A DNA stretch of 64,000 bases from Paenirhodobacter sp. (GCF_041916475.1 NZ_JAYRZN010000011.1:26053-90052); one strand, 5' to 3'; counted from the stretch's first letter, positions 60,496 through 62,544 are shown. Notes: generated by a model not told the origin, from the letters alone. Translations and numbers: made by a program.

Positions 60496-60610
60496 CGTGC
60501 TGTTCCAATCTGCGGTCGAGACCGCCCCCGGGGGTGGTCCCGGGGTGTTCAAAGAACCTGTGTCACGCTGGCCCTGGTGTCAACCAGCCCCCGGGCGACC
60601 TGGCCTTGCG

Positions 60611-60832
60611 TCAGGCCTTGTTTTCGTCGGCGGGTGCCGCGGCGGTGGCCTGGGCGACGGGGGATGCGATCGCGGGCGTTTCGGATTCTTCGTCTTTCAG
60701 GCCGCGTTTGAAGGCGGTCATACCCTTGCCGACTTCGCCCATCAGGCCTGCGACCTTGCCCTTGCCGAAGAGCACGAGGACCACGACGGCGATCAGAAGC
60801 AGATGCGGAAGCGCCAATCCATTGCTGAGCAT
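60611..60832 (-). CDS. tatA: Twin-arginine translocase subunit TatA/E, orphan copy (no tatB/tatC adjacent)
   Basis: LLLIAVVVLVLFG.GK..LMGEVGKG..AFK.G; SD AAGGAG 7 nt before ATG. Confidence 0.92.
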   Translation of the reverse strand: MLSNGLALPHLLLIAVVVLVLFGKGKVAGLMGEVGKGMTAFKRGLKDEESETPAIASPVAQATAAAPADENKA

Positions 60833-60840
60833 GTTCTTTC

Positions 60841-60895
60841 TCCTTGAACCATGAGGTGCCGCGCGGACGGCGCGGCGCGTGTCGGGATCAGAGGA
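60841..60895 (-). promoter_or_regulatory. Predicted mRNA stem pairing the uORF stop region with the tatA Shine-Dalgarno
   Basis: UCCUCUGAUCC (60895-60885) pairs with GGUUCAAGGA (60850-60841): 9 bp, one bulge, one U.U; encloses a 7-bp GC hairpin at 60858-60876. Confidence 0.55.
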
Positions 60896-61214
60896 TGCGG
60901 GGCGGCGCGCGCGATTCGGCCCAGGAATGGGTGCGGATGATCCGGTCCGGGCCTGCGGCGAGGTCGATCGTGGCCGGGAAATTCCGGACGAGCGGCATCA
61001 CAAGCCGAGCGGGGACGGGCAGGATCGCGGGCGGCAGGTCGTCCGGAGTGGTGGCTTTGGAAAGAAACAGACGGTCCTCGCCGCCGATCAAGGCGATGCG
61101 CTCGGCATGCGCCCAGAAGCCGGCTGCGCCGCGCTCGGGCACGAAGCTGCTCAGCAGGGCCAGAAGGCCCAGCAGGACAACCGATACACAAAGGCCCTTC
61201 GTTGCGCGCGACAT
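60888..61214 (-). CDS. 108-aa membrane-anchored leader protein ending in RAPP (candidate translation-arrest peptide)
   Basis: MSRATKGLCVSVVLLGLLALLSSFV...RIIRTHSWAESRAPPRIL*; hydrophobic residues 8-25; RAPP = residues 102-105 (60911-60900). Confidence 0.7.
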   Translation of the reverse strand: MSRATKGLCVSVVLLGLLALLSSFVPERGAAGFWAHAERIALIGGEDRLFLSKATTPDDLPPAILPVPARLVMPLVRNFPATIDLAAGPDRIIRTHSWAESRAPPRIL

Positions 61215-61220
61215 GACGGG

Positions 61221-61249
61221 AACGTGACAGCCCGCGCCCGCGCTGGCAA
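61221..61249 (-). promoter_or_regulatory. Sigma70-type promoter predicting a leaderless transcript for the RAPP ORF
   Basis: TTGCCA-N17-CACGTT-N6-ATG; no SD in front of the ATG. Confidence 0.55.
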
Positions 61250-61290
61250 GAAAAATGGTCGTGAACGGCGCAGCTGCGGCAAAGGGGCGC

Positions 61291-62544
61291 TCACCCCTGC
61301 AAGGCAGCAATTTCGCGCGCCAGGGTGGGCAGCTCCGTGGTGGCGCCGGACAGGCCGGGCAACAGCGGGAACAGGCAGGCCTGGATGGCGTGATAGATAT
61401 CGGGCTTGCCGGTGAACTGACGCGCATCCGGACGGTTGTCGGTGCCGACCTCCGGGAACCAGCCGCCACGCCGGCGGTCGATGAACAGGTCTTCGGCGCA
61501 GCGCCAGAGGCGCAGGTAATCCTCCTGCAGCGCCTCATCCGGCTGCCGCTTCAGCTGGGCGGCGGCGGCGCCGATCGCCTCTGTCACCGGCCACCAGTAG
61601 CGCGCGCGCCGCAGCGGGCGGCCGTGGGTATCCACCGTGTAGAGGATGCCGCCATGCGTGCTGTCCCAGCCATCCGAGAGGGCGCGGGCATAGAGCTTCT
61701 CGGACCAGCGTAGCAGCGCGGGATCGCGGCGCCCGTCCATGTCCCAGGCCTGAAGCAGCAAGCGGGAGAGCTCCAGCGAATGGCCCGGCGTTGTGCCCGC
61801 CGGGCGGAACATGGGGTTGCCCTCGTAGGCGGGGTCGACGTGCCAATCGCGGTTGTAATGCTCGGGCAGGCGCCACTCATGCCGCGGGGCCACATGGCCC
61901 GCGAAGAAATCCAGAATCATGCGGGCGCGGGCGGCGAAGCTGCGATCGCCGGTGGCTTCGCTGGCGGCAAGCAGCGCCTCCACCGAATGCATATTGGCAT
62001 TCATCCCGCGGTAGGCGGAGAATTCGGCCCAGTCGCGGGTGTATTCCTCACGCATGCGGGCCTGGTCGTGATCCCAGAAATGGACGTTGATGATCTCCCA
62101 CACATCCTCGATCAGGCGGTCCGCATCCGGATGGCCCGCGGCCTTTGCGCTCGCGCCCGCGAGGAGAACGAAGGCATGGCCATAGGCGAGCTTGCTGGCG
62201 TCGGTGGTGGCGCCGCCCGGCGCGAAGGCCCAGACATAGCCGCCGTGGGCCCCGTCGCGGTGATGGCGCCAGAGGCTGGCCATGCCGTGGTCGATCATGT
62301 CGTCGGCGCCCTTCACCCCGGCCAGATGGCCGAGCGCGAAGGCGTGAACCATGCGGGTGGTGGCGTGCAGCTCGCGGGGCGCGCCGGGAATCGGGGCGCC
62401 GTCGAAATCCTGCGCGTGGAAGCCTCCGGCCACGTCGAGGCTGCGCGCGAAGAAGCGGAACTGCCGCAAGGCATCGCGGAGCAGGTAGCTGCGGTGATCC
62501 TCGGTGCCCCACCAGGGGCCATGACGGGGCACGCTGTCGGTCAT
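61291..62544 (-). CDS. AGE-family epimerase/isomerase (YihS/mannose isomerase-like)
   Basis: R....FALG, HGGY, YGHAFVLLA, NANMH..EA, PGH..E, WWP..EA, YH. Confidence 0.9.
   Translation of the reverse strand: MTDSVPRHGPWWGTEDHRSYLLRDALRQFRFFARSLDVAGGFHAQDFDGAPIPGAPRELHATTRMVHAFALGHLAGVKGADDMIDHGMASLWRHHRDGAHGGYVWAFAPGGATTDASKLAYGHAFVLLAGASAKAAGHPDADRLIEDVWEIINVHFWDHDQARMREEYTRDWAEFSAYRGMNANMHSVEALLAASEATGDRSFAARARMILDFFAGHVAPRHEWRLPEHYNRDWHVDPAYEGNPMFRPAGTTPGHSLELSRLLLQAWDMDGRRDPALLRWSEKLYARALSDGWDSTHGGILYTVDTHGRPLRRARYWWPVTEAIGAAAAQLKRQPDEALQEDYLRLWRCAEDLFIDRRRGGWFPEVGTDNRPDARQFTGKPDIYHAIQACLFPLLPGLSGATTELPTLAREIAALQG

Follow-up and report, generated by a model that had tools for sequence, protein, structure and literature searches.

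Genes and features of the locus

The window analyzed here is a stretch of 64,000 nucleotides from Paenirhodobacter sp. (GCF_041916475.1, NZ_JAYRZN010000011.1:26053-90052), and all window positions are counted from its first letter. On its minus strand a short upstream open reading frame (uORF), referred to here as the leader gene, precedes a paralogue of the twin-arginine translocation (Tat) gene tatA, which we call tatA2. The subject of this analysis is a predicted mRNA stem in which the end of the leader gene pairs with tatA2's Shine-Dalgarno (SD) sequence.

The leader gene (61214-60888, minus) encodes a peptide of 108 aa that starts with MSRATKGLCVSVVLLGLLALLSSFVPERG and ends in ...HSWAESRAPPRIL*, and the GC content of its open reading frame (ORF) is 0.82 at third codon positions (GC3) versus 0.54 at second positions (GC2). 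The peptide is laid out as an N-terminal hydrophobic export or anchor segment, a linker of ~80 residues and a C-terminal ...SRAPPRIL*. The hydrophobic segment GLCVSVVLLGLLALLSSFV covers codons 7-25 (61140-61196, minus), is preceded by R3 and K6, and is predicted to be a signal peptide or a signal anchor; residues 7-21 form the top 15-residue Kyte-Doolittle window of the leader, with a mean of 2.79. No twin-arginine motif was found in this N-terminal segment. The R-A-P-P motif (residues 102-105 of 108) is encoded by CGC GCG CCG CCC (60911-60900, minus). It is followed by the last three codons CGC AUC CUC for Arg-Ile-Leu (60899-60891, minus) and by UGA (60890-60888), and these three codons make up a 9-nt fixed spacer that carries the anti-SD sequence. 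In the predicted arrest register the first proline codon, CCG (60905-60903), occupies the P site and CCC (60902-60900) the A site, an assignment that we take from work on RAPP peptides (PMC10951233). The leader protein has no Pfam or NCBIfam match, and a Pfam search with six members of the leader family at E≤5 also returned no match, DUF2946 included. Membership of the copper-sensing CutF/DUF2946 leaders was rejected on the lack of a DUF2946 match and of a CxxxC motif in the window copy.

The tatA2 gene (60832-60611, minus, AUG at 60832) lies 55 nt downstream of the leader gene in the same orientation, a layout with its match in all seven orthologues described below. It encodes a protein of 73 aa of the TatA/TatE family, LLLIAVVVLVLFGKGKVAGLMGEVGKGMTAFKRG, which scores 40.6 bits against the TatA_B_E profile PF02416 (cut-off 21) and 53.4 bits against TIGR01411, slightly below the cut-off of 53.9. 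Its SD sequence AAGGAG (60845-60840, minus) stands 7 nt ahead of the AUG. The genome holds three TatA/B matches, and because a tatA-tatB pair is present on another contig (C1), tatA2 is an extra paralogue; only five of the 27 species of the genus carry a second tatA copy.

Predicted masking of the tatA2 SD by the end of the leader gene

The 5' arm of the stem, UCCUCUGAUCC (60895-60885, minus), pairs with the 3' arm GGUUCAAGGA (60850-60841, minus), which overlaps the SD. The pairing is made up of 4 bp (UCCU:AGGA), a bulged C, 3 bp (UGA:UCA), a U.U mismatch and 2 bp (CC:GG). In the Boltzmann ensemble calculated in a 143-nt context, the seven core pairs had probabilities of 0.61-0.69 and were the likeliest pairs, with values above 0.9 when the arms were folded alone, and the outer two CC:GG pairs had a probability of 0.40. 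The minimum free energy (MFE) structure adopts another register, in which the UCC right after the stop codon pairs with the GGA of the SD; the SD is masked there too, and the best structure with the arm-stem pairs lies only 0.7 kcal/mol above it. Summed over all registers, the probability that GGAG is paired with the last three codons, the UGA and the next 3 nt was 0.74 (0.73-0.75 across contexts of 95-480 nt), and GGAG was left unpaired with a probability of 0.24 in the window (orthologues, 0.00-0.41). The SD is predicted by these calculations to be mostly masked, with the stop region of the leader as its partner.

An initial annotation made from the sequence had proposed that the leader end and its UGA can pair with the tatA SD region and that the 5' arm starts about 10 nt past the first base of the first proline codon. 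Both proposals were confirmed by the arms found here, with a distance of 10 nt from 60905, and the condition that would have refuted the annotation, a predicted structure that leaves the SD open, did not apply. The annotation had also described a 7-bp GC hairpin inside the stem; this hairpin, GCCGCGC-CGUCC-GCGCGGC (60876-60858, minus), is present in every predicted window structure but is not conserved, being absent in three of the orthologues (L014, L054 and L056). A role of the inner hairpin as terminator or attenuator was rejected, as no U-run follows it and a terminator scan of the minus strand from the leader gene to tatA2 returned no terminator-like site.

Conservation of the motif, its spacing and the pairing

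Seven distinct Paenirhodobacter orthologues in about four clades were compared: the window, L014 (with L018, from G321), L054 and L056 (metagenomes, in the clade of L014), L020 (G320), L019 (= L053, G314) and L055 (a metagenome sequence in the clade of L019). Two additional metagenome loci were found, L015, which is near-identical to the window with an identical spacer, and L016, which is partial on a 975-bp contig. Each of the six further orthologues has, immediately ahead of a TatA gene, a leader of 104-114 aa as annotated. These leaders are 27-41% identical to that of the window, and the spacers of 32-55 nt are barely alignable. Every orthologue carries a hydrophobic N-terminal segment 73-83 residues ahead of the predicted arrest site.

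The motif R-A-(P/S)-P is followed by exactly three codons and UGA in 7/7 orthologues, and the residues at these three codons vary (RIL, ASP, SLS, VLS, IKT, ERS). In four other orthologues the RAPP codons read CGC GCC CCU CCU, CGC GCC CCG CCU, CGG GCC CCG CCU and CGG GCG CCC CCC; the codons thus vary synonymously, and we therefore consider the peptide motif to be under selection. The R-A-S-P clade (L019, 1743-2072 minus; L053, 1300-1644; L055, 1501-1821) ends in ...ADWLRPASRASPERS* and keeps a stem of 7-8 bp.

In every orthologue the last leader codon ends in CC or UC and the ribosome-binding site (RBS) of tatA2 contains UCA(N)GGAG. When the sequences were folded individually, the last codon or codons and UGA paired with UCA(N)GGAG in all seven. 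This pairing consists of UCUCC:GGAGA and UGA:UCA with a C.A mismatch in L014, of the same two helices with a bulge of one base in L054 and L056, of CCUGAU:AUCAGG in L020, of the 7-bp UCCUGAU:AUCAGGA in L019 and of the 8-bp CUCCUGAU:AUCAGGAG in L055, where a synonymous change of CGA to CGC supplies the eighth pair. The probability of pairing between the arm and the SD was 0.74 in the window, 1.00 in L014, L054, L056 and L055, 0.63 in L019 and 0.35 in L020. The inner hairpin is lineage-specific, with other GC hairpins in the 47-55-nt spacers of L020, L019 and L055 and none in the 32-41-nt spacers of L014, L054 and L056, consistent with an accessory element that does no more than shorten the loop under the outer stem.

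Conservation was judged from these per-sequence folds and from an arm alignment that was fitted by hand and is to be read as fitted. Within it 84.6% of the cells pair, compared to 34-53% when the partner is slid. Five pairs are invariant, all of which involve the SD or the stop codon, and the sole pair that changes on both sides joins the base that follows UGA to the one that precedes UCA (U-A three times, A-U twice, G.U once and U.U once).

Homologues of the leader are few. When 301 genera of the family were searched with the leader protein, only noise was returned, and a search of 401 genomes for the pattern RAPP+3+TGA...CANGGAG returned the window's own locus, leaders of copper-chaperone genes and chance matches only. 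Among 80 TatA loci from genome contigs such a leader was present only at the already known Paenirhodobacter locus, and scans of JGI metagenomes with the DNA pattern and with the protein found nothing. In the genomes and metagenomes searched, only a few Paenirhodobacter lineages were found to carry the leader-tatA2 system.

Comparison of the pairing with chance

As a genome control, the identical calculation was applied to 135 pairs of co-oriented genes with GGAG as SD and 19-85 nt of spacer. Pairing of the stop region with the SD had a mean of 0.06 in this set; it reached at least 0.74 in 1/135 pairs and at least 0.35 in 6.7%. Neither the stability of the stem nor the degree of occlusion exceeded background, and only the identity of the masking partner was unusual.

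Additionally, the last three codons were redrawn 300 times from the codon usage of the genome. Random codons matched the window pairing in 2.7% of trials, and the p-values of this codon randomization were 0.027 for the window, 0.000 for L014, L054 and L055, 0.003 for L056, 0.050 for L019 and 0.187 for L020, values that are not independent because the sequences are related (about four clades). From the window sequence alone the pairing is only partly beyond chance.

Geometry of a ribosome at the end of the leader

Counting along the mRNA started with +1 at the first base of the P-site codon, which places the three extra codons at +7 to +15, UGA at +16 to +18 and the window arm at +11 to +21. 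By toeprint and footprint conventions, mRNA is covered by a ribosome up to about +15/16, roughly 15-16 nt downstream of the P site. Within this assumed footprint lie the bases of the 5' arm that make up its anti-SD half (+11 to +15), and only UGA(U) lies outside. The stalled state was modeled as the RNA downstream of a boundary at +13, +16 or +18. A model in which the footprint was forced to be unpaired was discarded in favor of this downstream-only model, as the upstream RNA paired across the ribosome.

With the boundary at +16, the predicted cost of opening the RBS fell from 5.9 kcal/mol in free RNA to 3.0 kcal/mol in the stalled state for the window, from 9.4 to 4.7 for L014, from 13.7 to 6.6 for L054, from 7.6 to 4.8 for L056, from 6.2 to 4.2 for L020, from 6.8 to 5.4 for L019 and from 10.7 to 5.4 for L055. 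With the boundary at +13, the short-arm sequences L020, L019 and L055 failed to open; their arm starts at +13/+14, at the edge of the footprint.

The initial annotation had proposed that a ribosome stalled at RAP|P would cover the arm and switch tatA translation on. The coverage of the anti-SD half and the drop in cost in 7/7 sequences agree with this, although the predicted effect is of modest size in the window. The further claim that the stem supports arrest independently of the peptide motif does not hold, because a ribosome terminating at UGA would also cover the whole arm and melt the stem, and because the RASP clade keeps a stem that is as good or better.

A candidate translational switch and its alternatives

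Taken as a whole, the locus looks like a predicted translational switch on an auxiliary tatA, of the type of SecM-secA or CutF-cutO. We consider it somewhat probable that a ribosome positioned at the leader's 3' end opens the SD-masking stem and that arrest at RAPP prolongs the open state. For the masking stem itself, the best interpretation is a real and conserved element that has the last part of the leader ORF as its 5' arm. In the off state, the last one or two leader codons and UGA of the free mRNA would pair with UCA(N)GGAG and occlude the tatA2 SD; the complementarity, the predicted pairing and its conservation speak for this state. In the on state, as geometry and modeling suggest, a ribosome at the leader 3' end would take the anti-SD into its mRNA channel and so free the SD. 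The SD would then be kept open for as long as the putative R-A-P-P arrest lasts. By analogy with SecM, MifM, VemP and CutF, release would come about when the hydrophobic segment ~80 residues upstream engages the membrane insertion or export machinery, which would pull on the chain and end the arrest, and slow export or insertion of the leader would then lead to more TatA2 synthesis.

Several results weigh against this reading. The fold energy was no better than that of dinucleotide shuffles, with z = +0.5 for 60820-60920 and +0.6 for 60800-60960. The cost of opening the tatA2 RBS, 5.9 kcal/mol, compares with a genome mean of 8.9 ± 3.8, and 77% of the 135 control pairs are more occluded; because rare pairing is found together with a below-mean opening cost, it is the masking partner that is unusual and not the strength of masking. 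The predicted amplitude in the window is only ~3 kcal/mol, and the post-stop UCC:GGA register stays outside the stalled ribosome and can still form. L020 pairs weakly, with a probability of 0.10-0.35 over contexts and a codon-null p of 0.19, and the p-values, which come from related orthologues, are not independent. Strict covariation amounts to one pair in the hand-fitted alignment, a level that 53 of 500 shuffles reach, and RNAalifold predicted no pairs on a MAFFT alignment of the seven regions from the R codon to the AUG, an alignment that breaks because of the 1-nt register difference between UCA-N-GGAG and UCAGGAG and the variable spacer length. RASP is shared by two clearly different sequences, and every substitution of that proline abolishes arrest in ApcA and ApdA (PMC12992588). 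At this position only RAGP is reported to be permissive, in ApdP (PMC12992588), and RASP is not among the documented permissive variants RGPP, RAPG and RAGP; the RASP clade would be either a natural arrest-competent variant or one in which arrest was lost and coupling kept. Finally, no SD-masking hairpin was found for ApcA, ApdA and ApdP (PMC7897499).

Some of these points would be expected under plain translational coupling, in which any ribosome that reaches UGA melts the stem and RAPP is incidental or causes a mild pause without regulatory arrest. A terminating ribosome would cover all of an arm that includes the stop codon, so that the stem would make tatA2 translation depend on that of the leader with or without arrest, the RASP clade retains the stem even though the replaced proline is essential for ApcA and ApdA arrest, and opening in L020, L019 and L055, whose arm begins at +13/+14, hinges on the assumed footprint boundary. 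However, mere coupling has no need of the conserved N-terminal export segment and the conserved leader length (104-109 aa), and it does not call for the preservation of RAPP through synonymous codon changes in four clade members or for a motif-stop distance that is fixed at three codons while the residues vary. In bacterial proteomes RAPP is also one of the tetrapeptides avoided most strongly, but it is enriched close to the C-terminus in small leader proteins that are exported (PMC12992588). These features speak for arrest, and we regard coupling without arrest as the less likely reading, though it is the main rival and a serious one.

It is quite improbable, in our estimate, that the complementarity is fortuitous, with C/U-rich terminal codons that match a purine-rich SD in a GC-rich genome and conservation that reflects shared ancestry. 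The shuffles, the missing RNAalifold consensus structure and the fact that most pairs are invariant and lie in elements constrained anyway (the SD and UGA) would agree with such an origin. Against it stand the rarity of stop-to-SD pairing in the genome (1/135 gene pairs), the low codon-randomization nulls in 6/7 sequences and the persistence of pairing with different arms (UCCUC-UGA, UCUCC-C-UGA, UCUCC-UGA, CC-UGA-U and CUCC-UGA-U) in leaders and spacers that have almost fully diverged. Control at the level of transcription in the manner of TnaC or CruR, where ribosome occupancy at the leader end would govern the access of Rho to the spacer and to untranslated tatA2 and SD pairing would be secondary, appears very improbable. 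Spacers of 32-55 nt are short for Rho loading, the conserved feature is complementarity to the SD and not C-richness, the window spacer is dominated by its GC hairpin, and the interval between leader and tatA2 lacks a terminator-like site. The spacers of L014, L054 and L056 are nevertheless C-rich and G-poor, with ACAC and CCCC runs, and CruR, a RAPP leader, acts through Rho according to the summary given in PMC9973294.

Relation to known arrest-peptide systems

SD-masking stems that are opened by a stalled ribosome are known from SecM-secA, uDF_RQH-secDF2 and CutF-cutO (PMC10987492, PMC7897499, PMC9973294), and thus the type of switch predicted for tatA2 is already known, while its target pathway, Tat, would be new. 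CutF-cutO, in the cutFOG operon of Rhodobacter capsulatus (PMC9973294), comes from the bacterial family to which the window organism belongs. Both CutF and the window leader are small, with a Sec signal in CutF and a predicted export segment here, and both carry a stalling-like proline motif at the C-terminus. An intergenic stem-loop masks the SD of the gene that follows cutF, and in the genetic dissection of this system, mutation of the anti-SD made that leader dispensable (PMC9973294). The two systems differ in that the window leader is not DUF2946/CutF-like and lacks CxxxC, that the target here is a TatA paralogue and not a copper enzyme, and that the anti-SD here is formed by the last codons and the stop. 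One leader of the family, that of L020 (1731-2045, minus, protein P0003), has HCDDRC, a CxxxC motif, seven residues ahead of RAPP, which recalls the copper-binding motif of CutF; the other orthologues are without it.

With SecM-secA of E. coli and uDF_RQH-secDF2 of Alteromonas the locus shares an N-terminal export signal, a C-terminal motif for arrest that precedes the stop by a few codons (in SecM, RAGP and four codons; PMC10987492, PMC7897499), an SD-masking stem, which is disrupted by the stalled ribosome in those systems and predicted to be so here, and a target that is a protein-export component. It differs from them in a target of the Tat pathway instead of Sec/YidC, in a leader without sequence similarity to theirs and in being a sequence-based prediction. 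ApdP and ApdA (PMC7897499, PMC10951233) resemble the window leader in having R-A-P-P near the C-terminus of an exported protein of ~100-130 aa encoded upstream of an export gene, and ApdP is alphaproteobacterial, as is the host of the window leader. In contrast to them, an SD-masking hairpin is predicted and conserved here, the downstream gene is tatA and not secDF, and homology is undetectable. A further class of RAPP leaders precedes PCu(A)C copper-chaperone genes (class in PMC12992588; here L048/G273, L051/G213 and L052/G330, ~1500, from other genera of the same family). These leaders also end in RAPP, exactly three codons and UGA, and their stop codon is likewise part of a hairpin's 5' arm (GGUCUGA...UCAGACC). 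Unlike the window stem, these hairpins close right after the stop, and in the MFE structure the SD lies outside them; the leaders carry Cys/His metal motifs, and their downstream gene differs from tatA2.

Genomic context and further observations

Upstream of the leader gene in the window lies a GlcNAc-2-epimerase-family gene, and downstream of tatA2 an AI-2E-family transporter gene. The gene order leader-tatA2-AI-2E is conserved, and the gene upstream varies (epimerase, Zn-ADH, HIT). In cDNA libraries from wastewater, one Logan contig spans 60664-60917 with zero mismatches and others cover 60610-60879. These are weak evidence, because the contigs are short and DNA carry-over is possible, and are compatible with co-transcription of leader and tatA2. 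An Rfam search of 60500-61400 at E≤1 returned no match.

No SD was found before the leader AUG in any orthologue, and the mRNA on which the leader is translated may be leaderless or nearly so. A conserved block upstream of the leader AUG, (GA)UCACGACCAUUU..CUUGCCAGC-N10-GCUGUCAC (61215-61265, minus), is common to the window, L014, L054 and L056 and stops 9 nt before the window AUG. Within the leader coding region, a weak terminator-like hairpin with a U-rich tail (GGCGGCGAGGACCGUC UGUUUCUUUC; 61070-61085, minus) is probably due to chance. The interval between tatA2 and the AI-2E gene (60553-60610, minus) holds a conserved GGUUGACACC...(G/C)ACAGG(G/U)U that includes a TTGACA hexamer and is also present in L014, L019 and L020; it may be a separate promoter of the transporter gene.

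Among the individual loci, L021 (G307:C14, ~1501) has a tatA2-type paralogue (MLSNALTLPH...) without a leader ORF, directly after an unrelated gene. L016 (728-946) encodes a 72-aa variant (P0002) with an unrelated N-terminal half and a start that overlaps the stop codon of a gene of the HIT family. Over the last ~30 codons and the beginning of the spacer its DNA is near-identical to the window, and the one difference seen, a G-to-A change, breaks a pair of the inner hairpin; this variant is either a modular sensor swap or a chimeric low-coverage assembly. In L014 of G321 an apparent frameshift follows codon 12 (1467-1504; MNRIARALNISV versus LLGLFALLDGF... in the other frame), which is either a sequencing error or the mark of a decaying copy. 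The stem and RAPP are intact in this frameshifted leader, and L054 and L056 have an intact frame.

Significance for Tat-dependent export

The characterized arrest peptides that monitor export (SecM, MifM, VemP, ApcA/ApdA/ApdP and the uDF/uA families) all control components of Sec or YidC. Tat is not mentioned in the arrest-peptide literature searched, nor in the supplements to the proteome-wide RAPP survey, some of them covered in part. We tentatively propose, with limited confidence, that the leader is the first nascent-chain 'monitoring substrate' wired to Tat, a RAPP-arrested, membrane-targeted peptide that would register impaired membrane insertion, export or proton-motive force and switch on an auxiliary TatA through a stem between its stop codon and the SD. 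The locus also offers a compact and easily mutated model, as the anti-SD consists of 9 nt of non-conserved codons and the stop codon, and therefore arrest-dependent unmasking is separable from plain coupling. The natural RAPP and RASP clades provide a ready-made comparison, and the stem is of relevance to the prototype RAPP peptides, whose SD-masking hairpin was not found (PMC7897499). If the proposal is true, a nascent exported peptide would set the dosage of TatA post-transcriptionally, and feedback control by arrest peptides would extend from Sec and YidC to twin-arginine translocation.

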